Source: a virus (lineage: Duplodnaviria; Caudoviricetes). From it: a stretch of DNA of 60,354 nucleotides. Shown one piece after another: positions 226-52,705 of this stretch. The stretch is taken from positions 1-60,354 of IMG/VR virus record IMGVR_UViG_3300037520_000542. One strand, 5' to 3'. Each line of letters opens with the position of its first letter. The stretch's first letter is position 1. The notes under the pieces were generated by a model. It did no database searches and was not told where the DNA came from. It saw only the letters and a list, made by a program, of their open reading frames with translations. The translations under genes and the position numbers were made by a program.

Positions 226-1092
226 ATGGATGTCACCGATCTGCCGGTCAGGTACGACGACAAGTTCGCTGACCGGGTGCAGCGGATGAGTTGGCAGCGA
301 TCCGCCACTGGGTACGCCCGCTACTGCTGGGTGGAGGACGGTCGCGTCCGCTGGGTGTCGATGCACCGGCTCGTCTGGGCGTGGGAGCATGGCTGGGAGA
401 ACGTGCCCCGCTACATCGACCACATCAACGGCGACCGGATGGACAACCGGCTGGAGAACCTGCGTCCGGCCACCCTGTCGCTGAACGCCCACAATGCCCG
501 CCGCAAATCGAGGCATCTCCCGCAGGGCGTTTTCGTCAACAAGGGGTCGGCCCTGAACCCGTACTACTCTGCGATAAACCACCGCAACCGGCTGCATCAC
601 TTGGGGGTGTTCGCGACCGTCGAGGACGCTCGTGCGGCGTATGACCGTGCCCGCTCCCGGATCATGGAGTACGAGGTGGCGATGGCGTGCGGGGAGCCGT
701 GCGAGCCTCCCGTGATCGAGGTGAAGCGTGGTCGTCTCGGTCGCCCTCCGATTGGCGGCGGAGAGACGGCGGTGGCTCTCTACCGTTCCGGGCTGACGGT
801 CAAGCAGGTCGCCTCCCGTATGGGCATCAGTGATCGCACCGCGAGCCGTTTGCTGAGGTCTCTGGGAGTTCCTCTCACTCGCGGGCGGCGAGCCACCGTT
901 GACAGCATCCCCCCGTCCGGTACACTGGACGCCCGTTCAGCATCCCAACAGGAGCAGTCGGATGATTACGGCAACAATCACTGGGAACGTGGGCAAGGAG
1001 CCGACCCTGCGGACGACGCAGAGCGGCAAGACGATGGCGACCTTCTCGGTGGCCTCGACGGAGAAGAAGGACGGGCCGACGACTTGGGTTGA
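226..1092 (+). CDS. HNH homing-type endonuclease with AP2 and C-terminal HTH DNA-binding domains
   Basis: IDHINGDRMDNRLENLR (HNH_3-type), YYSAINHRNRLHHLGVFATVEDARAAYD (AP2-like), GLTVKQVASRMGISDRTASRLL (HTH); start 211 or 226; tail overlaps ssb. Confidence 0.85.
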   Translation: MDVTDLPVRYDDKFADRVQRMSWQRSATGYARYCWVEDGRVRWVSMHRLVWAWEHGWENVPRYIDHINGDRMDNRLENLRPATLSLNAHNARRKSRHLPQGVFVNKGSALNPYYSAINHRNRLHHLGVFATVEDARAAYDRARSRIMEYEVAMACGEPCEPPVIEVKRGRLGRPPIGGGETAVALYRSGLTVKQVASRMGISDRTASRLLRSLGVPLTRGRRATVDSIPPSGTLDARSASQQEQSDDYGNNHWERGQGADPADDAERQDDGDLLGGLDGEEGRADDLG

Positions 1093-1321
1093 GGTCGCCT
1101 GCTTTGACGAGCAGGCCGACATGGTGTCCCAGAGCCTCCACAAGGGCGACAGGGTGGTCGTCACGGGACGGGCGGCTCTGGAGACGTACGAGAAGAAGGA
1201 CGGCTCTCAGGGCTTCTCATTGCGCCTGATGGCGGATGAGGTCGGCAAGTCGCTGCGGTGGCCCAAGCGGCAGGCGGTGGCGGCTGGCGTCGAAGAGGCG
1301 GATGAGGTCATTCCGTTCTAG
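962..1321 (+). CDS. ssb: Single-stranded DNA-binding protein
   Basis: ITGNVGKEPTLRTTQSGK...LHKGDRVVVTG, acidic C-terminus DEVIPF; RBS CAGGAG before ATG 962. Confidence 0.95.
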   Translation: MITATITGNVGKEPTLRTTQSGKTMATFSVASTEKKDGPTTWVEVACFDEQADMVSQSLHKGDRVVVTGRAALETYEKKDGSQGFSLRLMADEVGKSLRWPKRQAVAAGVEEADEVIPF

Positions 1322-1351
1322 TTTCGCGATTCGCGAATACCGAACGCTTCA

Positions 1352-1384
1352 GACCGGCAGGGGAAGGGATGCCCCTGACCGGTC
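1352..1384 (+). terminator. Hairpin downstream of ssb (possible terminator or processing site)
   Basis: GACCGG-CAGGGG...CCCCTG-A-CCGGTC inverted repeat; no U-tract. Confidence 0.35.
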
Positions 1385-1402
1385 GCCACGCACGGAGGTG
1401 TC

Positions 1403-1615
1403 ATGCGGGCCAGCCTGAACTTCACTCTCCCGGACGACCAGTTCGCGTTCGACGCCGCCCTCTCTGGGCAGCGGGCACTGGTGGTGCTGGCCGAGATCGA
1501 CAGCCGCTGCCGGAAGATCATCCAGCACAGCGCGTCGTCAGATGGCGAGGCGGAACTCGCCCGCCGTGTCCGGATGATGATTCCCGCCGACCTGCTGGAG
1601 GTGCTGCATGACTGA
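1403..1615 (+). CDS. Hypothetical phage protein (70 aa)
   Basis: RBS GGAGG; coupled to the next ORF. Confidence 0.75.
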   Translation: MRASLNFTLPDDQFAFDAALSGQRALVVLAEIDSRCRKIIQHSASSDGEAELARRVRMMIPADLLEVLHD

Positions 1616-1979
1616 CGACATCGTGACGCGACTTCGCGGCTGGCACTGGCTGCACCTTTCGAGGATTGGCGAGTTGTTTGATGAGGCGGCAGGCGAGATC
1701 AAGCGGCTGCGAGGCGATGCCGAGATCGCGAGGCTGCGACTGGAGGCGGCGCACGGTGAGGTCGCCCTTCTTCGCGAGGCTATTCACCGTCTTGCTCAAC
1801 AGGACGCCACGTTGTCGGTGAGCGGTGGAAACGTGACCGTGACGATGGACGCCACGCTCAACGACGAGGAGCGTGAGGCGATCTGGACTGTTGCGGAGGC
1901 ATACGCTGAGAACGACGGTGACCCGGATTGCGAGCGGATCGCCAGAATCATGCAAGGGCTGTGGCAGCGGACGAAGTGA
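1608..1979 (+). CDS. Hypothetical phage protein (123 aa)
   Basis: RBS GGAGG; DIVTRLR...EAAGEIKRLR pattern typical of small phage proteins; stop codon forms part of an attC R box. Confidence 0.8.
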   Translation: MTDDIVTRLRGWHWLHLSRIGELFDEAAGEIKRLRGDAEIARLRLEAAHGEVALLREAIHRLAQQDATLSVSGGNVTVTMDATLNDEEREAIWTVAEAYAENDGDPDCERIARIMQGLWQRTK

Positions 1980-2066
1980 GAACGCCAGCGATCAGCGGCA
2001 TCGAACGCAGGAGACGACCATGACAGACGAGGTAGATGAGATGTCCGCTGCATCGCGTGGTTCTCA
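1977..2066 (-). mobile_element. attC: attC site (integron cassette recombination site) B
   Basis: Minus strand: TGAGAAC-CACGC-GAT(G)CAGC-GG(A)CATC...GATG-CC-GCTGATC-GCTGGC-GTTCTCA. AAC/GTT core triplets, 5/6-nt spacers, 8/7-nt L boxes, two extrahelical bases. Confidence 0.88.
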
Positions 2067-2079
2067 ATGGGAGAAGTGA
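2020..2079 (+). CDS. 19-aa mini-ORF starting inside the attC B loop (MTDEVDEMSAASRGSQWEK)
   Basis: RBS CAGGAG at 2008-2013, ATG 2020, stop just before the ATG at 2081. Confidence 0.45.
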   Translation: MTDEVDEMSAASRGSQWEK

Positions 2080-2080
2080 A

Positions 2081-2347
2081 ATGGACGTTGTGAGTCGCAT
2101 CAACCGCTGGCTGGAGGACGAGGACGCGGCCGACGCAGACGAGACGCTGCATGATGCACGCGACGAGATCGTAGCCCTTCGGGCGTTGCTAAAGCGGCAG
2201 AGCGAGGCAGCGCATCAAGCGGTCACAATGATGGGCCGGTACGCCGAGCAAACCGGCTTTCTGCTTGGCGGATTGGAGATGACGGCGGCTGGACACACCA
2301 CAGCCGACAAGGTCTTGAAGGCGCTCAAGGCGAAGTATCGGGACTGA
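2081..2347 (+). CDS. Hypothetical protein, cargo of cassette 2 (88 aa)
   Basis: RBS GGAG; its TGA is the first 3 nt of attC A. Confidence 0.8.
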   Translation: MDVVSRINRWLEDEDAADADETLHDARDEIVALRALLKRQSEAAHQAVTMMGRYAEQTGFLLGGLEMTAAGHTTADKVLKALKAKYRD

Positions 2348-2435
2348 GAACGCGGAAGATGATCGGCCCGCGAAGGAGGGGCCATGCTATGACGAACGAC
2401 GAAGATCGCGGGTCCGATCCATCGACTGGTTCTGG
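2345..2435 (-). mobile_element. attC: attC site A
   Basis: Minus strand: CCAGAAC-CAGTC-GAT(G)GATC-GG(A)CCCGCGA...TCGCGGG-CC-GATCATC-TTCCGC-GTTCTCA; same geometry as site B with covarying L-box sequence. Confidence 0.9.
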
Positions 2436-2640
2436 CTCGGGGTTGCCAGCACACCTGATTCAGCCGGAGTGGACGGAACTAGCGCGAGCCGTGACGTTCT
2501 TTGGCGTGCCGCTAGATAGACTCAGCCGTGACGAGTTGATTGCCAACATTGGATACCTCCTTACTCAAGTTGAGGATGTGAAGCGGATGCACCGCGCAAC
2601 GCTGGAAATCTTGAAGGAGAGGCACCCGGTTTCTTGGTAG
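2389..2640 (+). CDS. Hypothetical protein, cargo of cassette 1 (83 aa)
   Basis: RBS AAGGAGG and ATG lie in the attC A loop; TAG abuts CCAGAAC. Confidence 0.75.
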   Translation: MTNDEDRGSDPSTGSGSGLPAHLIQPEWTELARAVTFFGVPLDRLSRDELIANIGYLLTQVEDVKRMHRATLEILKERHPVSW

Positions 2641-2678
2641 CCAGAACCAGCGTTTATGCAGCAGCCTGCTGCGTAACA
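2641..2678 (-). mobile_element. attI-like site heading the cassette array
   Basis: Minus strand: TGTTACGCAGCAGG-CTGC-TGCATAA-ACGCTG-GTTCTGG; has an R box and an L-like box but no distal R'' arm. Confidence 0.6.
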
Positions 2679-2748
2679 CCCCTGTCGCCGCGAGCGACGT
2701 GACCCCAGAACGTGTCCCAAAAAAGACGAACCGGCGACACTTCCCAAT

Positions 2749-2892
2749 ATGAGTAGCCCGCTCATCGCCCTGACCGGAGTCATCTACCTCTACGTCTCGG
2801 TGGAGCAGTTCTGGCGCGGCAATCCCGGCATGGGGATCGCCTATCTGGGGTACGCCTTCGCCAACGTGGGCCTGTTTCTTATGGCCCGGTAG
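2749..2892 (+). CDS. Small two-helix membrane protein (47 aa), absent from the ORF track
   Basis: MSSPLIALTGVIYLYVSVEQFWRGNPGMGIAYLGYAFANVGLFLMAR. Confidence 0.75.
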   Translation: MSSPLIALTGVIYLYVSVEQFWRGNPGMGIAYLGYAFANVGLFLMAR

Positions 2893-2903
2893 GGCGGACG
2901 CCG

Positions 2904-2914
2904 GGACATAAGTC
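2904..2914 (+). promoter_or_regulatory. Putative late-promoter motif GGMCAYRARYC
   Basis: GGACATAAGTC, 17 nt before ATG 2932; related copies at 3222, 6298, 14387, 22357, 42199. Confidence 0.55.
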
Positions 2915-2931
2915 ATTCGGAGGACGAGAAC

Positions 2932-3201
2932 ATGCAGCCGCGACAGATGTACGAAGTCGCTGATGGTGGTCCGGAGATCATGCGCCAGACGGTGCCGGGC
3001 TACGGCTACATCCGCAAGTCCACGCCGACAGAACAGATGGTGGGTGGCATGGGTCGCGGTCAACTCCCGTCCGCCGACATGCTCATGGACGTTGGTGGCG
3101 ATGCCTACACGCAGGGCCGGTCGCTTCTTCGCGGCCTTCTTGGTCGCCCGGACCCAGACGGACTCCAGAACCGACGCGACACGAGCGTTTGGGTTCAGTA
3201 G
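2932..3201 (+). CDS. Hypothetical protein (89 aa)
   Basis: RBS GGAGGA; follows the promoter-like motif. Confidence 0.7.
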   Translation: MQPRQMYEVADGGPEIMRQTVPGYGYIRKSTPTEQMVGGMGRGQLPSADMLMDVGGDAYTQGRSLLRGLLGRPDPDGLQNRRDTSVWVQ

Positions 3202-3221
3202 GCCCGTTGCGGGGAGCCGAA

Positions 3222-3232
3222 GGCCATAAATC
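3222..3232 (+). promoter_or_regulatory. Putative late-promoter motif
   Basis: GGCCATAAATC upstream of GTG 3252. Confidence 0.55.
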
Positions 3233-3251
3233 CCTGTGAAGGGAGACTGGC

Positions 3252-5048
3252 GTGGGCATAGGCGACTGGATCAGCAACGCAGCGAAGTTTGCCAAGAAGG
3301 CACCCCCAGCCGTCCCGGCGGCGCGGATGGCGGAGTTGGCGAAGAAGGCCCGCGAGGCCGCACCTGCCCAGTCGGCATCTCTGGCCGACAAGTTTCCGCT
3401 GCTGGATGACGCTGCCGTTCCGCAAGCCATCGACATGGCGTCAGTCTCGTACCCAAAGAAGGGTCAGTTTCCATTCATTCCGGGCGTCAAGTGGACGCAA
3501 AGCGACGGCTATTTCGTTCCCGACAACCCGCAACTCGTGGCGGAAGCCATTGCCGGTGGGTTCATCGAACCGCCAATGGGCGTCAAGCCTGTAAGCGGAA
3601 ACGCCGGGCCCGTAGGCAGCGTGCCCAAGCAAGCCGACAAAGGCCCGGAGGGCTACACGCTCGCGCCGCTCGATGATGACGACCCAGCAGACGTAAGCGA
3701 TGGCGGATTTGAAAGTCAAGATTACGCCAGCCGGGTGGCCTCCGACTTGGGCGTGATTGACTGGGACGAGATTTTAGGTGGGTTTGTTGACCCTGACAGC
3801 GGCGACGCGCTGGTTGGAAAGAAGTTGAAAAAGAAGATGAAAGAGGCCAAAGAGATGGCCGGGACGCTTGGCATTTACTGGCCGGGCGATCCAAAGCCTG
3901 TTGACAGGAGGCCGGAAGAGAACATCCGCGACTACATCGCCCGCCTTCGCGAGATGGACAAGAACGAGGAGTACAAGCCTGCGGTCGCAAAGGCCGTGTC
4001 CGACCTTGAGGAGCGACTGGCTGGTCACGTCAGTAAAGGAAACATCCGGCCTCTAGAGCCCGGCTCCGAAGACGTGATCTCCGCCACCACGACTGCCGAT
4101 AAGGTGGACGCCGCCAAGAGAGGCACTCGGAATCAGATTACTCGGGACTACATCGACTACCTCGCCTCCAGCGGCGTGGATCAGAGGACATTAGACGACA
4201 TCGCGTCCGGTGCCCTGCCGATGGACCCGCAGTCACGGATGGCTCGTGCCGAGCAGCACGACCTCGATCCGAAGGCGATCTGGTTCCGCTGGGACAGGCC
4301 GCTGAAGACCGACATGAAGGGCTTTACCGGCGCGGCACTGGCACAGCCAGAACTGCGTCGATACAAGAGCGGCCAACTGGGGTTCATTGACCTCGCGCCC
4401 AGCAAGGAAGGGCTGGTCTACACGTCGCACAACCCGGGCTTCGCGAAGCGCGGCGTCCAGATGCCGTATGACGAAGTGATTTCCTACCCCCTGCTGGGCC
4501 CGAAGGAGGGCATCGCTGGCATCGACAACATGCCGCCCTCCGCCTACGACACATTTCGCAGCCGCATGCAATCGCTGCTGCTCAAGAAGTTCCCTGACAA
4601 GCATCTGTATCCTGAGAATCCCGGCATCCGTCGCGCTCACATGCGAAGCCATCATCTGGCAGAGCCGTTAGTGGAGCCGCAGTATGTTCAGGGGCCGCTG
4701 CGCGAGGCCACGCTCGACTCGCTGAGACGAATAGGGCCGAGTAGTCATGCGACGCACGAGGCGCAGGGAACTATTCCGCACTTTTCGACCGCAGAGGATC
4801 GCAAGGTCTACACTGAGCCGCTGATGGCATCGGGCGCGAAGGGCACCCTTGTCAGGGACGAGACGGGCTTTGCCACTGCGTTCACGCCCGCAGGGGCGAG
4901 GATGCTGCGGCGCGCCGACCTTGCCCCGCTCGACACTCGATTCAAGGGTGCGAGAAACCTTCTCCAGTCGCTGCTCGTTCCGGCTGTGATTGCGGGCGGT
5001 GCGTCCAGCCTGCCCTCGACCGATAGCCGACGCACGGAGAATCGCTAG
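3252..5048 (+). CDS. Protein with a putative divergent ADP-ribosyltransferase-like (ART-PolyVal-like) C-terminal domain
   Basis: LPMDPQSRMARA..D....WFRW / GLVYTSHNP / SYPL / GAKGTLVRD / LDTRFKGARNLL parallels the motif order of phage polyvalent-protein ART domains. Confidence 0.5.
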   Translation: MGIGDWISNAAKFAKKAPPAVPAARMAELAKKAREAAPAQSASLADKFPLLDDAAVPQAIDMASVSYPKKGQFPFIPGVKWTQSDGYFVPDNPQLVAEAIAGGFIEPPMGVKPVSGNAGPVGSVPKQADKGPEGYTLAPLDDDDPADVSDGGFESQDYASRVASDLGVIDWDEILGGFVDPDSGDALVGKKLKKKMKEAKEMAGTLGIYWPGDPKPVDRRPEENIRDYIARLREMDKNEEYKPAVAKAVSDLEERLAGHVSKGNIRPLEPGSEDVISATTTADKVDAAKRGTRNQITRDYIDYLASSGVDQRTLDDIASGALPMDPQSRMARAEQHDLDPKAIWFRWDRPLKTDMKGFTGAALAQPELRRYKSGQLGFIDLAPSKEGLVYTSHNPGFAKRGVQMPYDEVISYPLLGPKEGIAGIDNMPPSAYDTFRSRMQSLLLKKFPDKHLYPENPGIRRAHMRSHHLAEPLVEPQYVQGPLREATLDSLRRIGPSSHATHEAQGTIPHFSTAEDRKVYTEPLMASGAKGTLVRDETGFATAFTPAGARMLRRADLAPLDTRFKGARNLLQSLLVPAVIAGGASSLPSTDSRRTENR

Positions 5049-6298
5049 TGGCCGACCCCAACGAACTCCGGGCCAAGATGATCCTCAAGGACATCTACGC
5101 CCGTCATGGCATCGACCCCTCCATGCCGCTTGAGGAGCAACTCAATGCGGTGCAGATGAGTGCCATGATGGGTGGCAACGTCCAGTCCGCATGGTCGAAC
5201 CCGGAGGAGCGTGCCCGTGCGAGGGCGGAGTACGCCGCAAAGGGCAGGACCGACCAAGAGAAGGAGCAGCGGTGGCAGCAGTCGGCGCATCTGCTCGACC
5301 CGGACACCTACCAGTACCAGCAGAACGCAGGCCGAGACATCGACTTCCTGCTGGCGATGGATCAAGCCTCGCGCCGCGACCCGGATGCGGCGAGGGGTGC
5401 TGCGGCTGTTGGAGCGGCTGGCGGAACGTCAGCGTACGCACAGACGCCCCAGTCCGGAGTTGCCGAAGCACTGGCCTATTGGGACTCCAGCAACAACAGT
5501 CCGCTGTTCAGGGAGTCGCTGACCACCTCCAACTACCAGTCGCAGAGCCCGCTGCTCATGGGCCTGCTCAATGCCACGACGAACCCCGATGTTCCCGCCG
5601 GGAACTACATGAACTTCTCGGAGGTGATCCCCGACTGGGTTCGCATGTGGGGCTCTGGCGAGACGGGCTCCAGCGGCGAGGCGTACGAGGCGGCTCAGGC
5701 CAAGCGGATGGCGACCAACCGCTACCGTCTTTCGTCTCCCTCGCCAGTCCTTGACCTCCCAGACGGCGCAGATGTGGTGGCAAAGGACAATCGCATCCGG
5801 GAACTGCGTGACCTGACGCAGAAGGCAGACATCCCAAGCGCCTCGCAGCGGTGGGCGAGAACGGCAGGGGTCGTGCCGCCGGGATGGCTTACGGATTCGC
5901 TGGACTTTGCGACCAGTTGGCTCGACCCGACTGCCGTGATCCCAGTTGGCGGGGTTGCGGCCGGTGCCGCGAAGGCTGGAGTGAAGGGCAGCGTCAAGCC
6001 GCTACTGGCGGGCCTAAGTTCCGGGCTGTCCAACTTTGCGTCAGACATGGGCGTTGAGCAAGCCATCGGTCACGGCATCGGCGGCGTGACCGGAGGTCGC
6101 CCTGAGCGCTCTTGGAAAGAGTGGGCGTTAGGCGACTGGAGCCCCAGCCAAAAGAGCGAAGAAGAGGTTGCCGCATCCCGTCAGGCACGCACGCAACTCT
6201 ACGACCAACTCAAGGACGACGACAGAGTATCGAGAGCCGACTCGGAGGCGTACAAGGGTTTGGGACTGCGGGTCCATGTCCCGTACTCATACCGGTAG
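5048..6298 (+). CDS. Probable virion or ejection-type protein (416 aa)
   Basis: Ala/Gly-rich, LDFATSWLDPTAVIPVGG motif; lies in the structural block. Confidence 0.5.
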   Translation: MADPNELRAKMILKDIYARHGIDPSMPLEEQLNAVQMSAMMGGNVQSAWSNPEERARARAEYAAKGRTDQEKEQRWQQSAHLLDPDTYQYQQNAGRDIDFLLAMDQASRRDPDAARGAAAVGAAGGTSAYAQTPQSGVAEALAYWDSSNNSPLFRESLTTSNYQSQSPLLMGLLNATTNPDVPAGNYMNFSEVIPDWVRMWGSGETGSSGEAYEAAQAKRMATNRYRLSSPSPVLDLPDGADVVAKDNRIRELRDLTQKADIPSASQRWARTAGVVPPGWLTDSLDFATSWLDPTAVIPVGGVAAGAAKAGVKGSVKPLLAGLSSGLSNFASDMGVEQAIGHGIGGVTGGRPERSWKEWALGDWSPSQKSEEEVAASRQARTQLYDQLKDDDRVSRADSEAYKGLGLRVHVPYSYR

Positions 6299-34351: not shown

Positions 34352-35155
34352 TTGCGGCGGCTGAGGGATGTCCCTCCGCACCTGCGTCCAGTCGATGTAG
34401 GCACGCTCTGCGAGCCCCATCGTTCGGTGCCCGAGATGAAGCCTGCCCTTGCCGGGATGGAGCATCTCGATGTGCGTGGCACTGGATCGCCTCAGCCATT
34501 TACTCGACCCGCCGATGTTCAGGCTCTTGAGGTAGGCGAACATCACCTTGTTGCCACCGCTTGCCGTGATAGCCCACGCCAGCACCGTCCGGTCAGTGGA
34601 GAGTGACAGCATCTGCTTGACAGCATCGACGCACGGCTGCGACAGAAGTTTCGGCAGCGGGTCGCCCGTCTTGTGCTGCGTCCACCACAGAGTGTCGCCG
34701 CTGAAGTTGCCTGCCGTCATCCTCCAGAGGTCGCCACGCCTCGCCCCCGACTCGTAGCCGAGCAGCAGCCAGCACCGGAGGAATAGCCCCACCGGGCACC
34801 CCGAGCGAAGACGCTTTTCATCCAGCGAGAAAGTCCCCTTGACAGCCGTACAGCACTGTTCTAAAGTCCACGCCCTAGTTGGCGGTCGATGGGCCTTGAT
34901 CTTGACGATTCCTCTGGGGATCGACTTCACTAGCCCGCGATCAACGGCGTAGTTCCACAGCACCATGAGCATGGCACGCTCATACGAGACTGTTACGGAG
35001 GACACGACTTCCAGCCGCTGCTTCAGGTAGCGGTTGCAGGATGGGGCCGACAACTCTCCCAAGTTGCGGGCCAGCCGTCGCAGGCTGTGCGAGTAGAGCC
35101 TGCTGACAGCACGTTCACTGAGATACCTTTCCGCCAAACGAGACGCTGAAATCAT
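34340..35155 (-). CDS. Tyrosine recombinase
   Basis: YESGARRGDL (R), HKTG (K), KWLRRS (HxxR variant), HLGH, ERAY (Y); start uncertain (35155 or upstream). Confidence 0.85.
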   Translation of the reverse strand: MISASRLAERYLSERAVSRLYSHSLRRLARNLGELSAPSCNRYLKQRLEVVSSVTVSYERAMLMVLWNYAVDRGLVKSIPRGIVKIKAHRPPTRAWTLEQCCTAVKGTFSLDEKRLRSGCPVGLFLRCWLLLGYESGARRGDLWRMTAGNFSGDTLWWTQHKTGDPLPKLLSQPCVDAVKQMLSLSTDRTVLAWAITASGGNKVMFAYLKSLNIGGSSKWLRRSSATHIEMLHPGKGRLHLGHRTMGLAERAYIDWTQVRRDIPQPPQLIE

Positions 35156-36140
35156 GGACGCACCCCTCATCGAGCAGGCCGAAAGTATCGAGGACATGCA
35201 GGGCATCAACCCCCCTGCAATGAGCCCCGATAGTGGCAACCCGCTCGCTATGGGCGCACAAGCAGCATGTAGAGCCGGGCTTTCACGCCCCTACATGGTT
35301 CCTGTGCGACCGGTCGATATTCGGCGACAAGAGACGAACGCCGACTACCACGCTGACGAAACCCACAGGTCTTGCAGCCGAGTCAAAACGCTCCTTGACT
35401 CGACCACCCTGTACCACCAGCGGTACGTCGCCAAAACCCTCCCGCCCTACCAGAGCAGTGCCCTCGATCACGGCACTCTCATGCACCGGTGGCTGGAGGA
35501 AGGCGATGCCTTCCTTGAGACGCTGGTGTCTCCTCCGCCAGACACACTAACAGCCACCGGACAGGTTGGCAAAGAAGCCAAGAAGTGGGCTGAAAACGAG
35601 GCTCCCGCAGGGGCGACAGTCGTCGGCCCGAAGGAGCGTGCCCAGATTCTGGCGGAAGTCGCCGCCATCAAGGCGAACCCTGCCGCCGTCGAACTGATCG
35701 ACGCCATCATCGACCACGAGGTGTCGGTGCGATGGACGACGCCGCAGGGCGACCGGCTGAAGTGCCGGTACGACGCACGCACTCCCGACGTGTGGATCGA
35801 CCTCAAGACGACGAGCGACGAGGACATCCGCAGTCAGTGGCCCGCGAGCGTCATTCGCTTCAAGTACCACCTCCAAGATGCGTGGTATCGGCTGGGCATG
35901 GAGGCGTGTGGCCTTGAGCCACGCCCGCTGCACTTCATCGTCATCAGCACCAGCATCTCGCACGACTGCCAAGTCGTGACGCTGCCCGAAGTCGTCGTTG
36001 CCGAAGGGCGGCGGCTCATGGACCGGGCTCTCGCTGACCTTCGCCTGCGTGAAGACCTCGACTGGTGGTTGCCGGACCATCACGGCGAGGTGTTTGAGTT
36101 GGAGTTTCCGGCGTACTTACTGAGGAGTTTCCAGTCGTGA
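35154..36140 (+). CDS. RecE/ExoVIII-like PD-(D/E)xK exonuclease (DUF3799-like)
   Basis: HGTLMHRWL, LKCRYD, IDLKTT, YHLQDAWY; true start may be downstream. Confidence 0.9.
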   Translation: MDAPLIEQAESIEDMQGINPPAMSPDSGNPLAMGAQAACRAGLSRPYMVPVRPVDIRRQETNADYHADETHRSCSRVKTLLDSTTLYHQRYVAKTLPPYQSSALDHGTLMHRWLEEGDAFLETLVSPPPDTLTATGQVGKEAKKWAENEAPAGATVVGPKERAQILAEVAAIKANPAAVELIDAIIDHEVSVRWTTPQGDRLKCRYDARTPDVWIDLKTTSDEDIRSQWPASVIRFKYHLQDAWYRLGMEACGLEPRPLHFIVISTSISHDCQVVTLPEVVVAEGRRLMDRALADLRLREDLDWWLPDHHGEVFELEFPAYLLRSFQS

Positions 36141-36793
36141 AGACCCAATCGCTTTGGACTGAGGCCAGCGAGCATCTCGACCAGTTGTTTGCGGCACACG
36201 CCGCTGCTCTCGGTCAGTTGAAGAACGCACCGCGAACGTGCGTCAGCCACTTCGCGAAGAAGGGGCCGGACGGCAAGCCGATCCCCGACTACGCGGACCT
36301 CGCCACCGTGTTCGACACGATCCGTGCGGCCCTCGCCGCCAACGGCCTGAGCGTCACGCAGACGTTCATGCCGTTCGGAGAGGACGGCTCGACGCTGATG
36401 CTGGTGACGACGCTTGGTCACAAGAGCGGCCAGTTCCAGCGGTCGTACCTGCCGATGAAGGCGAACGTCCCACCGCAGCAGTTGGCGTCCACCGCCACCT
36501 ACCTGAAGCGTGTGGCGTTGTGTGCGGTCGTGGGCATCGCTGCCGACGACGACGACGACGGCCAGCAGGCCAACGCCACGCACGCCACTGCGACGGTGAG
36601 CGACGAGCCGCGAATCGTCGCTGCCCTCCAGAAGAAGTTGAAGGCGGCGAAGGACGCGAAGGGCAGGGCGGCAGAGATCGCCCGTGCCCAGAAGGGTCTG
36701 TCAGAGGGGCTTCTGAGCCAGAAGTCGTTCGACCAGATCAAGGACTTGGCTGACGCACTGGACGAGCAGCAGGAGCCAGCGTTGGCGTCCTGA
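36137..36793 (+). CDS. erf: ERF-family ssDNA annealing protein
   Basis: YADLATV...NGLSVTQ...LGHKSGQ...STATYLKRVAL..VGIAADDDDDG. Confidence 0.9.
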   Translation: MKTQSLWTEASEHLDQLFAAHAAALGQLKNAPRTCVSHFAKKGPDGKPIPDYADLATVFDTIRAALAANGLSVTQTFMPFGEDGSTLMLVTTLGHKSGQFQRSYLPMKANVPPQQLASTATYLKRVALCAVVGIAADDDDDGQQANATHATATVSDEPRIVAALQKKLKAAKDAKGRAAEIARAQKGLSEGLLSQKSFDQIKDLADALDEQQEPALAS

Positions 36794-40527: not shown

Positions 40528-40991
40528 ACGTCTCTCTGGAATGGTTTGAGGTGTCGCGTGCCGCCCTCGTCGGCGTGTCTCGCAACGTCGAGGCGATGCG
40601 GAAGGGCTGCGTCAGCAGGCTCTCGATCAGCGACGAGTGGAGTGCCCACATTCTGGGTGCGTTGGGCGAGGCAGCGTTTGCGAAGGCGACCAATCGCTAC
40701 TGGAGCGGAAGCGTCAACACCTTCAAGGCTGCGGACGTTGGCGACAACATTCAGATTCGCACGCGGAGCAAGCACTCCTACGACCTCATCGTCCGCGACG
40801 GCGACCGTGACGACGACGTGTATGTCCTCGTCACCGGAGGCCCAAACGACTTCACGCTGCACGGCTGGATGCGGTGCGGCGATGCCAAGCGTCCGCAGTT
40901 CAAGGCGAACTACGGCAACTACGGGGAGGCGTACTTCGTGCCGAAGTCTGCCCTGCACCCGATGGACCCCCTCATCTGCAAGGAGTGCTGA
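40524..40991 (+). CDS. Restriction-endonuclease-fold phage protein
   Basis: GALGEAAFAK...ADVG..IQIRT. Confidence 0.55.
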   Translation: MNVSLEWFEVSRAALVGVSRNVEAMRKGCVSRLSISDEWSAHILGALGEAAFAKATNRYWSGSVNTFKAADVGDNIQIRTRSKHSYDLIVRDGDRDDDVYVLVTGGPNDFTLHGWMRCGDAKRPQFKANYGNYGEAYFVPKSALHPMDPLICKEC

Positions 40992-40992
40992 C

Positions 40993-41517
40993 ATGAGGAC
41001 TCTTGGGACGACGATGATGCAGACGTTCACCGGCAAGGTCATCGACCTGTCCGACTTCACGGTGGACGATGTTCGGCTTCCGGACATCTCGCACGCACTG
41101 TCGCTCATCAACCGGTTCACGGGTCACTCCAAGTGCCCGTATTCGGTGGCGCAGCACAGCGTCATGGTCAGCAAGATTTGCGACCAGCGACACGCCGTAT
41201 GGGGGCTTCTGCACGACGCCAGCGAGGCGTATCTGGGCGACGTTGCCACGCCGCTCAAGAACATGCTTCCGGAGTACCGCGACCTAGAGGAACACATTCA
41301 ACGCACCATCGCCTCCAAGTTCGGCTTGGTGTGGCCCATGCCCAGCGAGGTGAAGGAGGCCGACCTGCGTGCGTTGATGGCGGAGAAGCGTGACCTGCTC
41401 ACTGTCGATCACGATTGGGGCATCGACGTTGAGCCGATGGCTGGCCCCATCCTGCCGTACTGCTGGCAGCAGGCAAAGCAGTTGTTTGAGGACCGCTACA
41501 AGGAGTTGATGCCGTGA
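40993..41517 (+). CDS. HD-domain 5'-deoxynucleotidase (YfdR/YfbR-like)
   Basis: DISHALSLINRFTGH..YSVAQHS..LLHDASEAYLGD..PLK..VKEAD. Confidence 0.92.
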   Translation: MRTLGTTMMQTFTGKVIDLSDFTVDDVRLPDISHALSLINRFTGHSKCPYSVAQHSVMVSKICDQRHAVWGLLHDASEAYLGDVATPLKNMLPEYRDLEEHIQRTIASKFGLVWPMPSEVKEADLRALMAEKRDLLTVDHDWGIDVEPMAGPILPYCWQQAKQLFEDRYKELMP

Positions 41518-41873
41518 TGAAGGAAACTGAGGGTGCGTCGGTCAAGTACGCCAGTGGTGCCGTCCGGTCGAGCGATGCGGAGTTGACGAGGTACGACCTC
41601 ATCAGCCCCATCGGTCTGGCTGCGGTCGCTGCGGCGTGCGCTGAGGGTGCGGCCAAGTATGGCGACTTCAACTGGGAGAGGGGCATGCCAGCCAGCGACA
41701 TGCTGAACCACGCCATCCGTCACCTCTACCTGTTTCTGGGCGGGGACCGAAATGAGGATCATCTCGGACATGCAGCATGGAATGTCATGGCTGCGATTCA
41801 CTCGCTGGAGGTGTGGCCGCACCTCAACGAGGGCACGTTGCGAAGCGGCTACTGCGAGGCACCAACAAAATAA
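41514..41873 (+). CDS. dATP/dGTP diphosphohydrolase (DUF5664-like)
   Basis: RYDLI...GAAKYGDFNWERG...HAIRHL...EDHLGHAAWN. Confidence 0.85.
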   Translation: MMKETEGASVKYASGAVRSSDAELTRYDLISPIGLAAVAAACAEGAAKYGDFNWERGMPASDMLNHAIRHLYLFLGGDRNEDHLGHAAWNVMAAIHSLEVWPHLNEGTLRSGYCEAPTK

Positions 41874-47529: not shown

Positions 47530-48072
47530 GTGGCCCGCCAGCGTGCAAGGATGCACCTGACAGAGGCACAACAACTGCTGGCCGAAGAGGCTATGGCTGT
47601 CGTGCCAAAAGCCATCATCGCCTTTCGCTGTCGATACCCGTCACTGCGGAAGCCGCTGCGACAGATCGACTCCACGAGCGTGGCCTATCTCGCCATCTGC
47701 CGTGCCGCCACGACGTACAACCCGGACGTGAGCAAGGTCACGACCTACTTCTCGATGGCGATTCGCAACGCCCTGCTCAAGGAGATCGACCGCAATCGCA
47801 GGGCACGGTACGACTCGCCGGACAGGGTGCCGATGGAGTTGGCGGAGGCTCTCGCCATTGCACCGCATAGCATGGCAACGAAACTCCAGACTGCCATCGC
47901 ACGCCTGCCCGGCAAGTACCGGAAACTGATTCACATGCGGTACTACAAGGGGCTGAGCCTGCGGGAGATTGGCGAACACGCACGCTGTGACCCACGCACC
48001 ATTAGGCGGAGACTCGCCGCCGCTTTGGAGGTGCTTGGAACTCTTTTGGGAAGCGAGCCGCTGCTGCCTTGA
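47530..48072 (+). CDS. Sigma-70 family sigma factor (regions 2 and 4 only)
   Basis: AICRAATTYNPD.SKVTTY...IRNAL; IARLPGKYRKLIHMRYYKGLSLREIG. Confidence 0.85.
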   Translation: MARQRARMHLTEAQQLLAEEAMAVVPKAIIAFRCRYPSLRKPLRQIDSTSVAYLAICRAATTYNPDVSKVTTYFSMAIRNALLKEIDRNRRARYDSPDRVPMELAEALAIAPHSMATKLQTAIARLPGKYRKLIHMRYYKGLSLREIGEHARCDPRTIRRRLAAALEVLGTLLGSEPLLP

Positions 48073-49897: not shown

Positions 49898-51358
49898 TCA
49901 CGCCTCCTGCGTGTTGAGGACAACGGTGCGGCACCAAGACGGGATTGCCTTGTGCCACTGCGATCCGACCCTGCCCGTGTATGCCACGACGACACGGGCA
50001 CGGGGCTTCTCGCTCCGCCAATGCGTCTCGGCGTCGGTGATGAGGACGATGGAGTCAGGCCGGTCGGCCTTGTCCACCTCCGCAACGGCGGTCGCCATGT
50101 CGGTGCCACCGCCGCCGTGCCAGTCGAACGTGCGGGCGTTGGTCACGGTGGCGTGCGACTGCACCTTCGTGTCGGCGCAGTACACCTTGACCCTGCCCAA
50201 CTTCCGCAGCCCCTGAGCGATCACCGACAACGCACGGGCGTGGATGTCGGTGGTCATCATGGACGCACTCGTGTCCACGATCACGACAGCGTGCGGCTGC
50301 ACCGTGATGCGACCGTGCAGCAGCGGCTGGTCATCGCCGGGCGGCTGCTTCTTGGATCGCCTGCGGTGCGAGAAGTCCCGCCCGCCGACAGGCGATGCCA
50401 CGCTGGTGCAGACGGCAGACCGCAGTTGGGCGAACGGGTCCGGCGTCGGGTGGAGCCGGGCCTTGATCGCCGCCTTGATGCTGCCGGGAACCGAGCCGGG
50501 ATTGTCGGACTCGTACTTCTCGACAGCCGCTGCGGCTATGTCCTGACCGTACGTTTCCCACGAGCCGTCGCTTTCGACTTCGTACCTGCGGGGGACGCCG
50601 TCCGCACACGAGCCGCCCGAGCCGGGCGAGCATGGGCTGCGTCCAGCAGGGCCGTCGTCATGTCCAGCAGCCCCGTTCCCGTTGGCTTGCCCGTTGGTGG
50701 AGTCGTCGTCGCCCCCTTCGCCAGCGCCTCCCTGCGAATCGCCTTCGCCATCTTCGGGTTCGCCATCACCATCACCTCCCCGTCCGCCAGTGCCCCTGTC
50801 TCCACCAGCGTCATCTTCACCGTCCCCGTCATTGCCTTGCGAGTCATCGTCGCTCTCCTGCTGCTGGGTGTTGCTGCCGCTCTCGTCCTGCGGCGGCTTG
50901 GGAAGCCGGTCAAGGATGAGCCTGTAGTATTCCTGCATCGACTTGTTCGCCGGGAAGTCGAGCGTAATCCCCATCGAGGGAACTTGACACCCGAGATGCA
51001 CGGCACCGTCTGGTCGCAGGTGACGCATGTGGGCGAGCGTCTGCTCGATCACAAGGTCGGCTGCGAGGTTGAGGATGAACTGCTGCTGGGGCGTGGGGTT
51101 GGGCACCATCTCCCTTGCACGGGCATGATGCTCAAAGATGAGGTGCAGTACCTCGTGCGTGACGAGGTACGCCCCTTGATCCACGCCGATCTTGGAGATG
51201 AAGTTGGCATCCCAGTACAGGTTGCCAGCGTCATCGACCGCAGCGGTCCCGATGCCGGGAGTCTCACGCTCCCGGAGTGAGTAGATGTACGAGGCGAGGT
51301 ACGGGACGTACTCAAAGGTACGAACCCGTGCCTGTCCGAGCAGTTGTCGTGGGGTCAT
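49898..51358 (-). CDS. DUF2201-like metallopeptidase plus VWA domain protein
   Basis: HEVLH zinc motif, acidic Gly linker, VDTSASM MIDAS, GGGGTD, LITD. Confidence 0.88.
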   Translation of the reverse strand: MTPRQLLGQARVRTFEYVPYLASYIYSLRERETPGIGTAAVDDAGNLYWDANFISKIGVDQGAYLVTHEVLHLIFEHHARAREMVPNPTPQQQFILNLAADLVIEQTLAHMRHLRPDGAVHLGCQVPSMGITLDFPANKSMQEYYRLILDRLPKPPQDESGSNTQQQESDDDSQGNDGDGEDDAGGDRGTGGRGGDGDGEPEDGEGDSQGGAGEGGDDDSTNGQANGNGAAGHDDGPAGRSPCSPGSGGSCADGVPRRYEVESDGSWETYGQDIAAAAVEKYESDNPGSVPGSIKAAIKARLHPTPDPFAQLRSAVCTSVASPVGGRDFSHRRRSKKQPPGDDQPLLHGRITVQPHAVVIVDTSASMMTTDIHARALSVIAQGLRKLGRVKVYCADTKVQSHATVTNARTFDWHGGGGTDMATAVAEVDKADRPDSIVLITDAETHWRSEKPRARVVVAYTGRVGSQWHKAIPSWCRTVVLNTQEA

Positions 51359-51570
51359 GTGTCTCTCCCGTGAGGGGGTTGGGGAATGTCGGCCCATGAA
51401 TCAACGTCGCTGAGGCGTCGATGCGTGGGCAAGTCGTCGGGGACAAAGTAGTCGCCGTTCCAGAGTGCGATCTGGACGTACCCGTGCGAGCGTGCCACGA
51501 GGTAGCGGCCGACCTTGATGGGGACTTTGCCGTAGTCGGGCTGAAAGAGATTCCAAATCATTTCTTGCAT
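51355..51570 (-). CDS. Hypothetical protein (71 aa, DUF551-like)
   Basis: GRYLV...W.G..F....VDSWADIPQPP. Confidence 0.6.
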   Translation of the reverse strand: MQEMIWNLFQPDYGKVPIKVGRYLVARSHGYVQIALWNGDYFVPDDLPTHRRLSDVDSWADIPQPPHGRDT

Positions 51571-51589
51571 GCTCCTGTTTCCTGTGGGG

Positions 51590-52705
51590 TCACGACTGAA
51601 CCAGAGCCATCAACTTACCGAGTGTCTCCTTCGGCGGGGTCCAGCCATCGGGCCGCACGCCACCGTCCTTGACCGGCTTCCAGAAGGACTTGAACTGCAT
51701 GAGGAAGGACTCGATCTCGTGCGAGCCGACCTCGATGAACGCCTCAGCAGCCCGCGTCCACCGCTCCTTCGTCGGGTTGGCACGCAGGCACTTCACGATG
51801 CCGGTGAGCAGGCAGATGTTGGCGTCCGGCCTGTTCTCGTAGGTGTAGTTCACGCTGCCGGACAGGAACTCCTCCGGGTTGAGCAGGTCGAGTTTCTGTG
51901 CGTACTGGAGGAACATCGACGCATGCTCAGTGCCGACCGCACCCGCACACAGCGTGCGGTAGATGGGGTCTTTGCGTTCCTTCCGCCACTCATACCCGCA
52001 GGCTTCGGCCGCAGCACAGACCTTGACGAGGTACGTCCACGTTCGCGGGTTGGGAAACGAGAGCGTCTCGTCATCCTGCGGCAACTTCTCAAGGGCATCG
52101 GGTGCCGACCGAAGGAACGCCTCGACCAGCGACCCGAACTGCGGGAGCATGTCAGCCCAGTGATCGGGCACGACCGGAAAGGACGGTGCCGTCCACTCGC
52201 AGCCAGCCCGCAGGCCAGAGAACCAGTGTTCGCGATCCACCTCCCAGTCGAAGTGAACGAACCGCGACCGCATCGCAGGCGACAGCGGCACTGCGTTGGG
52301 GCACAGTTCGGGCGGGTTCATGGCACCCACCATGAGCGTGGATGCGGGCATCTGGTAGCCGCCGACACGACGTTCGGTGAGGACCGAGAGCAGGCCAGCC
52401 TGCGTGGCAGACGGGACGTTCGTCACCTCGTCCACCACAACGAGGGCACGACCGTCCTTCGTCTTGTCCCACAGTTCGGTGGGCAGCATGCGAACCACCC
52501 CAGCCTTGTGGTCGGGGGTGGGGTAGCCCGAGAAATCTTCGGGCAGGTGAGTGGCACCGAGCAGGGGGACGAACGTCCGCTCCAGTGCAGCACACAGTGC
52601 CTCCAGAGAGGACGACTTGCCGACGCCGGTGCCGCCGCGAAACAGGACGGGAGCCACCTGAAGGGCGAGGAAGCCGGGCGTGTTTCCAAGATTGACGCGA
52701 GCCAT
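51590..52705 (-). CDS. MoxR-like AAA+ ATPase
   Basis: GGTGVGKS, VVDE, GAMNP, AMRSRF, NPRTW. Confidence 0.9.
   Translation of the reverse strand: MARVNLGNTPGFLALQVAPVLFRGGTGVGKSSSLEALCAALERTFVPLLGATHLPEDFSGYPTPDHKAGVVRMLPTELWDKTKDGRALVVVDEVTNVPSATQAGLLSVLTERRVGGYQMPASTLMVGAMNPPELCPNAVPLSPAMRSRFVHFDWEVDREHWFSGLRAGCEWTAPSFPVVPDHWADMLPQFGSLVEAFLRSAPDALEKLPQDDETLSFPNPRTWTYLVKVCAAAEACGYEWRKERKDPIYRTLCAGAVGTEHASMFLQYAQKLDLLNPEEFLSGSVNYTYENRPDANICLLTGIVKCLRANPTKERWTRAAEAFIEVGSHEIESFLMQFKSFWKPVKDGGVRPDGWTPPKETLGKLMALVQS

Follow-up and report, generated by a model that had tools for sequence, protein, structure and literature searches.

Introduction

Integrons are known as gene-capture devices of bacteria. 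Recent work describes many anti-phage defence genes among integron cassettes. Parts of integrons have also been reported from phages: Qi et al. 2023 (PMC9892861) list 17 CALINs (clusters of attC sites lacking an integrase) in phages and 21 phages with integron parts, and the phage attC sites presented there are rare cases with few sites each. The attC consensus, as quoted by the same authors (PMC9892861), is RYYYAAC/GTTRRRY. The folded attC strand has an unpaired central spacer and two to three extrahelical bases, on one arm only; among the latter a G is conserved and a T follows 6-8 nt further on, and a G stands directly after the AAC on the cleaved bottom strand (Bouvier et al. 2009). An atypical layout, in which intI is transcribed toward the array, is described for the Treponema chromosomal integron (PMC3607928). 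Meanwhile, promoter-stem-loop "mobile regulatory cassettes" are described for T4-type phages by Arbiol et al. 2010 (PMC2839356).

In this study, we analysed a locus in a complete phage genome from lake water (IMG/VR record IMGVR_UViG_3300037520_000542; "the window" refers to this whole stretch of 60,354 nt). Two hairpins of the locus are very probably integron attC sites, which together with a half-site at 2641-2647 delimit two gene cassettes. The complete window genome has no match to PF00589, hence no integrase, and the locus would therefore be a CALIN rather than a complete integron.

Two hairpins in the window

An earlier note on this DNA had pointed to two imperfect inverted repeats, and both are present. 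Site A (1977-2066; its + strand corresponds to the attC bottom strand) has AAC at 1981-1983 and GTT at 2060-2062, with a predicted cut at 1982/1983. Sequence inspection places its outer boxes, TGAGAAC and GTTCTCA, opposite each other at 1977-1983 and 2060-2066; the inner stems are GCGAT/ATCGC and CAGCGG/CCGCTG, and the 3' arm of the + strand has two bulged bases, C and T. In the case of site B (2345-2435, + strand; AAC 2349-2351, GTT 2429-2431, predicted cut 2350/2351), TGAGAAC (2345-2351) is opposite GTTCTGG (2429-2435), and the inner stems are GATG/CATC, ATCGG/CCGAT and CCCGCGA/TCGCGGG. These are unlike the stems of site A in sequence, and two bulges are found as in A; the L boxes thus differ between the sites yet pair, as the earlier note had remarked. 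The loop of site B contains a GGAGG Shine-Dalgarno sequence and the start codon of the gene g83.

The pattern GAGAAC-N50-80-GTTCT has four matches in the window against 0.69 expected, a number reached in none of 100 shuffles. Single-strand folding only moderately beats shuffled sequences (z -2.5, -2.9, -2.0 and -1.4), so the reality of the sites was decided by family comparison. Two candidates were rejected at this locus. A third site at 2707-2812, flagged by a regular expression, could not be aligned with the family and was missed by the covariance model R1 described below. AGAAC-N17-18-CG was considered as a possible ECF-type promoter for the sigma factor of the phage, owing to an apparent resemblance; such a promoter would leave the flank rule described below unexplained.

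A conserved hairpin family

Sites A and B belong to a large conserved family of hairpins with the form AAC-core-GTT and a length of 41-95 nt. A covariance model, R1, was built from 33 copies taken from the window and from viral contigs. On the 60-kb window it found only site A (match 1973-2070, 94.5 bits, E 2.9e-24) and site B (2341-2439, 75.1 bits, E 7.9e-19), the next-best match having 14.2 bits (E 0.079). Both sites retain every conserved feature, and their scores are as high as those of any family member.

AAC and GTT are invariant in all 33 aligned copies, and each window site has both triplets; in an alignment of 110 sequences the three AAC/GTT pairs are preserved in 104/104-105 cells. 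The consensus has 17 pairs, of which 8 show compensatory changes among the 33 sequences and 12 among the 110. In the larger alignment (108 distinct rows), 96.7% of the cells are paired against 80.6% after shuffling, the alignment being fitted to the model and hence leaning toward the structure. All five pairing measures beat 500 of 500 shuffles, and in slid controls at most 50% of the cells are paired. In the family, an asymmetric spacer is followed by the bulged C and, 7 positions further on, the bulged T, both on the 3' arm (+ strand). In addition, both window sites and at least 90% of the 33 copies have a G directly after AAC. The outer four box bases (TGAG and CCAG; CTCA and CTGG) deviate from the RYYYAAC/GTTRRRY consensus; after GTT, the family most often has CTCA (41/108) or CTGT (23/108).

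Compact forms of 41 nt, which is below the usual size of attC sites, have the same arms and bulges without translation signals. Long forms have a tight length of 79-84 nt, and the loop of the long attC often holds a Shine-Dalgarno sequence, a start codon and the first 14-19 codons. Within each of the 87 loci with matches, all sites lie on one strand, which is the coding strand at the loci inspected (the window, L008, L063, G007 and L179). No relevant Rfam family matches the hairpins.

Relation to canonical attC sites and integron integrases

As a yardstick only, R1 was applied to the class 1 integron dfrA12-gcuF-aadA2 of a Klebsiella plasmid. The three best of 16 matches in 2.5 kb are exactly its three attC sites, with E-values of 9e-6, 0.027 and 0.36 (23.3, 10.9 and 6.9 bits), and in each case the match is on the strand that does not encode the genes, i.e., the attC bottom strand. 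The first bulged base of the phage sites is a C instead of the conserved attC G; R1 aligns the two phage bulges, in register, to the G and the T that bulge in attC(aadA2). The earlier note had read the repeats as attC geometry with the minus strand as top strand. The geometry holds, and so does the strand assignment, since R1 matches canonical attC on the strand opposite their genes; the outer four bases and the first bulge, C and not G, depart from canonical attC.

The association of the family with integron integrases was examined with TIGR02249 (cut-off 265 bits). Matches above the cut-off occur in 4/4 examined genome assemblies that hold the family versus 0/14 control genomes; none occurs in four related viral records. 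In two assemblies, intI and the sites are on one contig (G001:C39, 457 bits, with 4-6 sites; G004:C92, 444 bits, with 2 sites). Chromosomal genes on these contigs encode an ABC transporter, lipoyl synthase, a rhodanese and a ROK kinase, and the integrase of G001:C39 shares 50.6% identity with IntI1. The assemblies in which the family occurs are assigned to four different phyla, a spread that may reflect mis-binned contigs. In a scan of bacterial genomes with the exact pattern, 29 matches were obtained; 20 of them were rejected as chance matches that R1 did not confirm.

The phage sites hardly differ from the sites of chromosomal integrons in bacteria from the same kind of habitat, and some array cassettes of viral records share 88-94% identity with cassettes that lie on contigs of bacterial assemblies. 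Together, these likenesses point to a direct path of gene traffic between phages and host integrons.

Cassettes and genes of the locus

If each AAC is cut between its second A and the C, the two cassettes have the bounds that the earlier note had proposed. Cassette 2 (1983-2350, + strand, 368 nt) would comprise the core of attC A, a leader ORF of 19 codons and the gene g88; cassette 1 (2351-2646, + strand, 296 nt) would comprise the core of attC B and g83. Upstream, the small gene g123 (1608-1979, + strand; from the ORF list) has its stop codon TGA at 1977-1979, within the outer box of attC A. The leader ORF (2020-2079, + strand) starts in the loop of attC A, where its GGAG Shine-Dalgarno sequence is also found upstream of the start, and stops 1 nt before the start of g88. 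The locus L063 has an identical leader-ORF layout with, in contrast, a different attC upstream.

g88 (2081-2347, + strand; 88 aa, from the ORF list) has no Pfam or PHROG match, and none of its 44 metagenomic homologues has a functional name. Most of the differences between the window and the L063 copy that were inspected by eye are synonymous in the + frame, which supports the reading of g88 on the + strand. A search with g88 as query did not find the gene in four bacterial assemblies holding the family. g83 (2389-2640, + strand; 83 aa) has its first 15 codons encoded by attC B, and a search for its function found metagenomic homologues only, none of them named. Among 18 g83 homologues, the body after Gly-Ser is conserved and the attC-encoded N-terminus is variable. 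Close homologues bear different attC-encoded N-termini, so GTT-side exchange, or homologous recombination in the conserved arms, takes place as well. For g123, Pfam and PHROG gave no match either; its homologues end with TGA-GAAC at 6 of the 13 loci listed, the window among them, and in the phage record G007 a homologue sits between two attC sites. The relatives of g123 are cassette-borne in other phages.

The cassette genes are on the + strand, which corresponds to the attC bottom strand of canonical sites, so that each attC is 5' of its gene; canonical cassettes have the gene on the top strand and the attC at its 3' side. At its right-hand end (2641-2680, + strand), the array closes with CCAGAAC, the end of cassette 1 (predicted cut 2646/2647), after which come CAG and, at about 2655-2676, a hairpin. 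The same closing layout, AAC, (C/A)AG and a hairpin, is found in L008 and G007, and this junction is a candidate insertion site, possibly attI-like or secondary.

Complementarity between cassette ends

The earlier note had stressed that each R'' box is the exact complement of the start of its own cassette, and this proved to hold for both cassettes and for most neighbouring sites of the family. In the window, the end box of cassette 2 (TGAGAAC, 2345) complements the start GTTCTCA (2060) at 7/7 positions, and that of cassette 1 (CCAGAAC, 2641) complements GTTCTGG (2429), likewise at 7/7. For cassette 1, the complementarity extends to a perfect 12-nt inverted repeat around the gene body (2426-2437 with 2639-2650). 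Among 108 unique adjacent pairs of sites, the 5' flank of a site complements the 3' flank of the preceding one over a mean of 4.61 nt beyond AAC/GTT, and over at least 4 nt in 87 pairs. The control means were 1.83 for the flanks of the same hairpin, 1.98 for random pairs, 1.82 and 1.73 for sites two and three steps apart within a locus, and 1.92 for reversed pairing; the observed mean was reached in none of 10,000 permutations. An end box that complements the start of its own cassette is a signature of exchange at the conserved triplet.

Cassette content in related phages

The close relative G007 (62.5 kb; portal protein 86% and helicase 67% identical) has nine R1 matches at the equivalent place, between the homologues of SSB and g47. 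These correspond to seven distinct sites once the terminal overlap of the record is allowed for, compared with two in the window. Two incomplete records have 16 (G005) and 9 (G006) sites, and neither portal nor helicase was found in them. Searches of a cultured-phage collection, by nucleotide and by protein, gave no relatives of the locus or of the portal protein, and a neighbouring protein of 598 aa has no relatives in viral contigs.

The window was also compared with assembled metagenome contigs. A 522-nt contig from a lake metagenome (X11) matches 2347-2650 with 0 differences and has other sequence on both sides, i.e., cassette 1 occurs in another context. Other metagenome contigs part from the window at 1978-1981 and at 2062-2066. 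Joints at 1999-2043 that appeared to skip 43 nt were rejected as phage deletions; they are actually compact attC copies from elsewhere that align to the arms of site A. The gain and loss of small genes proposed in the earlier note is thus supported, in that related phages differ in cassette content at the locus and cassette 1 recurs elsewhere.

Since clustering of cassette bodies gave almost only duplicates from overlapping loci, it was replaced by an analysis of breakpoints. Of the right-hand homology breakpoints located at a site (n = 24), 18 fall on the AAC or within the 5' arm of the following site and 6 on GTT; for the 17 left-hand ones, 10 are at AAC and 7 in the 3' arm or at GTT. These positions fit a unit made of an attC and the gene downstream of it. 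Some breakpoints (7/17 left-hand, 6/24 right-hand) are incompatible with one cut site.

Proposed explanation and alternatives

According to the explanation we prefer, the CALIN of the phage is presumably served by the IntI of its host. During infection, the + strand of each site, when single-stranded, would adopt the hairpin fold of an attC bottom strand. The host would provide an integron integrase, which would then cut the 5' AAC between A and C and exchange strands with a partner: a second attC, an attI or a secondary GTT site. In this way, whole units, each an attC with the gene 3' of it, could be excised, inserted or swapped between phages and the chromosomal integron of the host. The structure, the family membership, the flank complementarity, the linkage of the family to intI in bacterial contigs and the differing cassettes of relatives are observed; the action of host IntI on phage DNA, the exact cut site and the exchange rate are inferred. 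A broader proposal, to which we give an even chance, concerns a group of lake phages of about 60 kb. They would carry arrays with attC at the 5' side of the genes at a fixed locus (from 2 to at least 9 sites in complete records, 16 in a partial one) as an accessory module, with the loop as a portable translation start (Shine-Dalgarno, ATG and a leader of 14-19 codons ending in Gly-Ser), and cassettes would flow in both directions, via the host integrase, between these phages and sedentary integrons of the "intI toward the array" type.

The translation signals could also indicate that the hairpins are RNA elements, either 5'-UTR structures presenting the Shine-Dalgarno sequence and the start codon or processing or terminator sites, and that their likeness to attC is coincidental. 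The loops of A and B with Shine-Dalgarno and ATG, the coding 3' arm, the tight length of the long forms (79-84 nt) and the single strand of all sites at each of the 87 loci, the coding one where inspected, agree with such a role. However, the compact 41-nt forms retain arms and bulges without translation signals, no Rfam family matches, and neither the complementarity between flanks of neighbouring sites, nor the location of the family beside integrase genes, nor the detection of canonical attC by R1 is explained; we regard this alternative as highly improbable, and a secondary RNA role beside recombination as possible. The hairpins might instead belong to mobile regulatory cassettes shuffled by homologous recombination through the phage ERF, exonuclease and SSB, as in the T4-type precedent, with no site-specific recombinase involved. 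The phage does encode an ERF annealing protein (36137-36793), a PD-(D/E)XK nuclease (35154-36140) and an SSB, some breakpoints lie within the conserved arms, and attC-encoded N-terminal peptides are swapped among g83 homologues. But exchange within the core can neither give rise to nor preserve the complementarity of a 3' flank to the next 5' flank (87/108 pairs), and the attC geometry and the linkage to bacterial integrases are left unexplained. This alternative is therefore given little probability, and homologous recombination may add to site-specific exchange.

A different doubt accepts the sites as real attC and takes them as fossils of one old insertion after which exchange ceased, most "viral" contigs with arrays being misclassified fragments of bacterial integrons. 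In favour of this view, no more than two sites and no integrase are present in the window, arrays of small genes of unknown function could pass for viral DNA, and the records with 16 (G005) and 9 (G006) sites are incomplete, with no portal or helicase found. This is unlikely, though less far-fetched than the two alternatives above: both window sites are intact in every conserved feature and score with the best members, two relatives that have phage genes and are complete or nearly so possess 7-9 and 3 sites, their cassettes being different, and cassette 1 recurs with 0 differences elsewhere in the same kind of lake sample. Finally, as imperfect, many-times-repeated hairpins with a bulged T, the sites might derive from a single-strand transposon or a miniature inverted-repeat element (IS200/IS605, REP-like), of which they would be ends or relics. 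The Pfam scans of 78 window ORFs revealed no transposase of any kind, the hairpins form regular arrays in a single orientation with one site per small gene, and the family adjoins integron integrases; the probability of such an origin is next to nil.

Comparison with known systems

The statement of the earlier note that integron cassettes are normally described on chromosomes and plasmids overstated the novelty of the locus, because the 17 phage CALINs of Qi et al. 2023 (PMC9892861) had been reported before. What goes beyond the rare few-site cases of that report is a whole phage lineage with a cassette array at a fixed locus. If the broader proposal above is true, a bacterial gene-capture system doubles as a gene-shuffling machine of phages. 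The system lends itself to testing: both window sites and their predicted cut positions are known, and G001:C39 supplies the cognate integrase gene. In addition, the reversed gene orientation and the translation start in the loop, if general for this integron family, would change the view of cassette expression.

The phage locus resembles CALINs and attC sites in the AAC...GTT hairpin, the unpaired spacer, the inner stem with two bulges 7 positions apart and the variable loop; like CALINs, it has one site per small cassette, an end box complementing the cassette start and no integrase of the phage. Unlike canonical attC, its first bulge is C and not G, the outer box bases misfit RYYY/RRRY, and the loop often includes a Shine-Dalgarno sequence, a start codon and 14-19 codons. 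Unlike in canonical cassettes, each gene is encoded by the attC bottom strand, with its attC on the 5' side. The phage family also differs from known CALINs in being highly uniform in sequence and in its arrays, which reach 16 sites in viral records.

With the class 1 attC sites, the phage sites share a bulged T, 6 pairs, a bulged G or C, 4 pairs, a 4-nt spacer and GTT, according to the R1 alignment; however, the low R1 scores of the class 1 sites (6.9-23.3 bits) indicate a distant sequence family, and the class 1 genes are on the top strand with each attC after its gene, whereas the phage arrangement is reversed. As in Treponema, intI in G001:C39 and G004:C92 points to the array, and the attC top strand has the same direction as intI. 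The Treponema cassette genes, as described in PMC3607928, are codirectional with intI, whereas those of G001:C39 and G004:C92 run toward intI, on the attC bottom strand. Similar to the T4-type elements described in PMC2839356, the phage hairpins are stem-loop repeats that flank small accessory genes in a hypervariable region and mark the boundaries of insertion, deletion and replacement. However, the T4-type elements contain promoters and, according to the same report (PMC2839356), are thought to use homologous recombination, whereas the phage sites follow the cassette rule and are linked to integron integrases.

Two attC-type hairpins and their genes

The two imperfect inverted repeats reported in the earlier note are present at 1977-2066 (site A) and 2345-2435 (site B), and are attC-type sites bounding two cassettes, cassette 2 (1983-2350) and cassette 1 (2351-2646). 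On the + strand, the start of both sites coincides with the stop codon of the preceding gene (TGA-GAAC); they continue into the 5' arm, carry a Shine-Dalgarno sequence and an ATG in the loop, place the 3' arm within the first codons of the following ORF, and end with TGGTTCT. The ATG of site A (2020) starts a 19-codon leader, the stop of which lies 1 base before the start codon of the small gene g88 (2081-2347), and that of site B (2389) is the start of g83 (2389-2640). The inner stems of the two sites differ in sequence and keep the same pairing register, and in both the 3' arm has two bulged bases, C and T. The bare motif is enriched in the window (4 matches vs 0.69 expected), and the folding energy by itself is only moderately unusual (z -1.4 to -2.9). 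Homologues of g83 and g88 are metagenomic only and all unnamed, and no functional name was found among them. The right end of the array consists of AAC-CAG and a hairpin, an arrangement also seen in the fetched locus L008 and the related viral record G007, and is likely the insertion point. In the loci of the homologues of g123 (1608-1979), L003-L012, many small array genes share a similar C-terminal motif, ...LLERxx, and have a stop codon overlapping the attC outer box (TGA-GAAC), suggesting that this box constrains the last codons.

A structured hairpin family

Through homologues of the neighbouring gene g123, loci L002-L013 were found, among which L008 contains three copies of the hairpin element, one of them compact (41 nt, its 2-nt loop enclosed by the same arms as in site A). 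When viral contigs were scanned for the pattern, at least 136 stretches were found, many with several copies; by length the elements form two classes, of 40-43 nt and of 79-84 nt. The alignment of 33 copies gave a consensus of 17 pairs with compensatory changes in 8, in which AAC and GTT are invariant, the G after AAC is nearly so, and an asymmetric internal loop is accompanied by two conserved bulges at a spacing of 7 positions. From these copies the covariance model R1 was built. A larger alignment of 110 copies (108 distinct rows) showed pairing in 96.7% of cells vs 80.6% when shuffled, figures biased towards structure because the alignment was fitted to the model; covariation was found in 12 of the 17 pairs, and slid controls paired in at most 50% of cells. 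Within the window, R1 matched only the two reported sites (94.5 and 75.1 bits; next match 14.2 bits). Over the fetched loci it gave 250 matches, including duplicates from overlapping loci, all of them on a single strand within each of the 87 loci with matches.

Cassette ends and exchange boundaries

The complementarity between cassette end and cassette start claimed in the earlier note holds for both cassettes: TGAGAAC (2345) pairs with GTTCTCA (2060), and CCAGAAC (2641) pairs with GTTCTGG (2429) inside a perfect 12-nt inverted repeat. The same rule was examined by comparing the 12 nt 5' of AAC with the 12 nt 3' of GTT in 108 unique adjacent site pairs. The 5' flank of each site complements the 3' flank of the preceding one; the run of complementary bases outside the triplets averages 4.61 nt and is at least 4 nt long in 87 of the 108 pairs. 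Controls gave means of 1.83 nt (own flanks of one site), 1.98 nt (random pairs from different loci), 1.82 and 1.73 nt (within-locus steps 2 and 3) and 1.92 nt (reversed pairing). None of 10,000 permutations reached the observed mean, the largest permuted mean being 2.69. Hairpin sites that recombine at their conserved triplet yield such complementarity, which would not arise from a promoter, a terminator or an RNA fold.

Breakpoints were taken from deduplicated blocks of homology shared by loci (identity at least 85%, length at least 150 bp). Homology starts at a site in 17 of 38 cases (10 at AAC, six in the 3' arm, one at GTT) and ends at a site in 24 of 42 (in the following site: eight at AAC, 10 in the 5' arm, six at GTT). 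Thus, the commonest shared unit runs from AAC to the next AAC and comprises an attC with the gene 3' of it. This unit is the prediction of a bottom-strand cut between A and C, in which the start codon in the loop stays with the gene. Not all breakpoints fit this unit: seven on the left point to a different attC upstream, g88 is preceded by a different attC subtype in L063, and g83 homologues are near-identical past a Gly-Ser junction and differ in their attC-encoded N-termini. Exchange takes place on the GTT side too, which could reflect homologous recombination within the arms or top-strand recombination, the latter reported as less frequent by Bouvier et al. 2009.

Gain and loss in relatives and in lakes

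Cassette content at this locus varies among related phages. The complete 60.4-kb window has 2 R1 matches. G007 (62.5 kb, 98% complete; portal 86% and helicase 67% identical to those of the window) has nine, two of which are repeated in the terminal overlap of the record, leaving seven distinct sites; its array lies between the homologues of SSB and g47, the same position as the two sites of the window. G008 (59.2 kb, with terminal repeats; portal 56% identical) has three matches, and two partial records in which portal and helicase were not found, G005 (38.6 kb) and G006 (19.1 kb), have 16 and nine. The portal gene of G007 (G007:C1:50412-52475) has one in-frame TGA read through, which could be a sequencing error, a frameshift or recoding. 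A search for the integron integrase family TIGR02249 found it in none of the four related viral records searched.

The phage is present in lake-water metagenomes, and contigs assembled from four runs were compared with window positions 300-5300. One contig of 522 nt equals 2347-2650 with 0 differences and is unrelated in both flanks, placing cassette 1 in another context. In other contigs, similarity to the window breaks off at either end of site A (1978-1981 and 2062-2066). In one run (X9), the summed contig depth at site A is about 5x that of its flanks, as expected for a repeated family. The gene gain and loss proposed in the earlier note is supported by these differences in cassette content.

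Integron integrases in bacteria

Scanning bacterial and archaeal genomes for an exact 19-base pattern gave 29 stretches, nine of which contain sites confirmed by the model. Four family-bearing assemblies, titled as a Cyanobium culture and as planctomycete, verrucomicrobial and acidobacterial bins, were examined and contain 6, 4, 25 and 8 sites. TIGR02249 was matched above its curated 265-bit cut-off in 4/4 of these assemblies vs 0/14 control genomes; the hairpin family is served by integron integrases in bacteria. The 15.8-kb contig G001:C39 carries an integrase (457 bits), with four strong and two weaker site matches, the nearest 2.1 kb off, together with genes for an ABC transporter, LytR, an outer-membrane efflux protein, HlyD and lipoyl synthase. 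In G004:C92, an integrase (444 bits) and two sites are 0.5 kb apart, with an ABC-F ATPase, a rhodanese, a ROK kinase and a radical-SAM gene as neighbours. With chromosomal genes beside intI and the sites, both contigs represent chromosomal integrons of bacteria. The C39 integrase shares 50.6% identity with IntI1 and 59.7% with a plasmid-borne integron integrase from a freshwater cyanobacterium. The C39 array obeys the cassette rule along its length, and its compact site differs from the commonest form on viral contigs at 1 of 41 positions (by eye, from printed sequences).

Cassettes common to the viral-record arrays and the C39 array are 92% identical over 358 bp and 88% over 183 bp, and one shared with a contig of the bacterial assembly G003 is 94.5% identical over 218 bp. 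Some of the assemblies may be mis-binned, and some 'viral' contigs with arrays may be of bacterial origin. On the reverse strand of L179, the locus from C39, two identical 95-nt attC sites of another subtype lie 762 nt apart (101-957) with identical printed 3' flanks, which looks like a tandem cassette duplication; between the last detected site of C39 and the 3' end of intI lies an AT-rich stretch of about 2 kb.

Other genes of the phage

At 60,354 bp and about 63% G+C, the window is a complete viral record that has direct terminal repeats. Among its products are a major head protein, terminase, portal and tail-like proteins, as well as SSB, HNH endonuclease, ERF annealing protein, PD-(D/E)XK nuclease, helicase and ECF-type sigma factor. 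A PF00589 search of the complete genome for a tyrosine recombinase gave 0 matches, and no cultured phage was found to be similar at the array locus or by portal protein. On the + strand, the PD-(D/E)XK nuclease and ERF-family annealing protein (35154-36793) form a recombination module with SSB (899-1321), which could be a source of single-stranded DNA for hairpin folding or a driver of homologous exchange between repeats. The HNH endonuclease gene (211-1092, +), with a C-terminal helix-turn-helix, lies just 5' of the cassette region, and its ORF shares about 190 nt with the annotated start of the SSB ORF. Between SSB and g70, an imperfect hairpin follows a GAAC (1343-1396, +; 12-nt arms, extra A on the 3' arm); it receives no score from R1 and may be a terminator or a decayed site.

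The sigma factor (47530-48072, +) has Sigma70_r2, r4 and ECF Pfam matches. The attC copies mostly start with AGAAC, followed by CG 17-18 nt further on, a pattern reminiscent of ECF promoters. An HD-domain YfbR-like deoxynucleotidase lies beside a dATP/dGTP diphosphohydrolase N-terminal domain (40546-41873, +), a pairing found in phages with 2-aminoadenine instead of adenine; Pfam scans of the window ORFs contained no adenylosuccinate-synthetase-like gene. A DUF2201 metallopeptidase/VWA-like protein and an AAA_5 (MoxR-like) ATPase form a minus-strand pair (49898-52735) in a genome otherwise on the plus strand.

Comparison with known integrons

That the locus is a real attC cassette array in a phage, of the kind lacking an integrase (CALIN), is well supported by the sequence comparisons. 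During infection, single-stranded phage DNA would let the + strand fold, a host IntI would cleave AA/C, and cassettes would then leave as circles, insert or swap. A preprint (10.1101/2022.09.11.507474) reports that cassettes can insert into genomes at positions other than attC and attI. Qi et al. 2023 (PMC9892861) reported integron parts, including 17 CALINs, in 21 phages, and found that five phage attC sites were recombined by IntI1; therefore, the kind is already known. In full-text literature other than the supplement of Qi et al., where relatives may be tabulated, our search found no phage lineage with a fixed cassette locus of up to 16 sites, no cassettes read from the attC bottom strand, and no attC loops carrying a translation start and the first codons of a gene. 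The array is of clear interest for integron and phage biologists.

R1 was calibrated, with filters off, on 2.5 kb of a class 1 integron (intI1, with dfrA12, gcuF and aadA2 on the other strand). The best three of 16 matches were its three attC sites (E 9e-6, 0.027 and 0.36), all on the strand opposite the cassette genes, so the + (coding) strand of the window corresponds to the attC bottom strand; the choice of the minus strand as attC top strand in the earlier note agrees with these matches. The window sites have the geometry of an attC, with a bulged T, six pairs, a bulged G or C, four pairs, a four-base spacer and GTT. In the R1 alignment, the phage bulges T and C are in register with the canonical T and G; Bouvier et al. 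2009 place the extrahelical bases on the R''-L'' arm and describe a conserved G and a T 6-8 nt further on. It follows from the strand assignment that the genes run antisense to those of usual cassettes, with each attC 5' of its gene. C39 and C92 are like the atypical layout described for Treponema (PMC3607928) in that the attC top strand runs the same way as intI, which is directed toward the array, but they differ from it in that the genes run toward intI.
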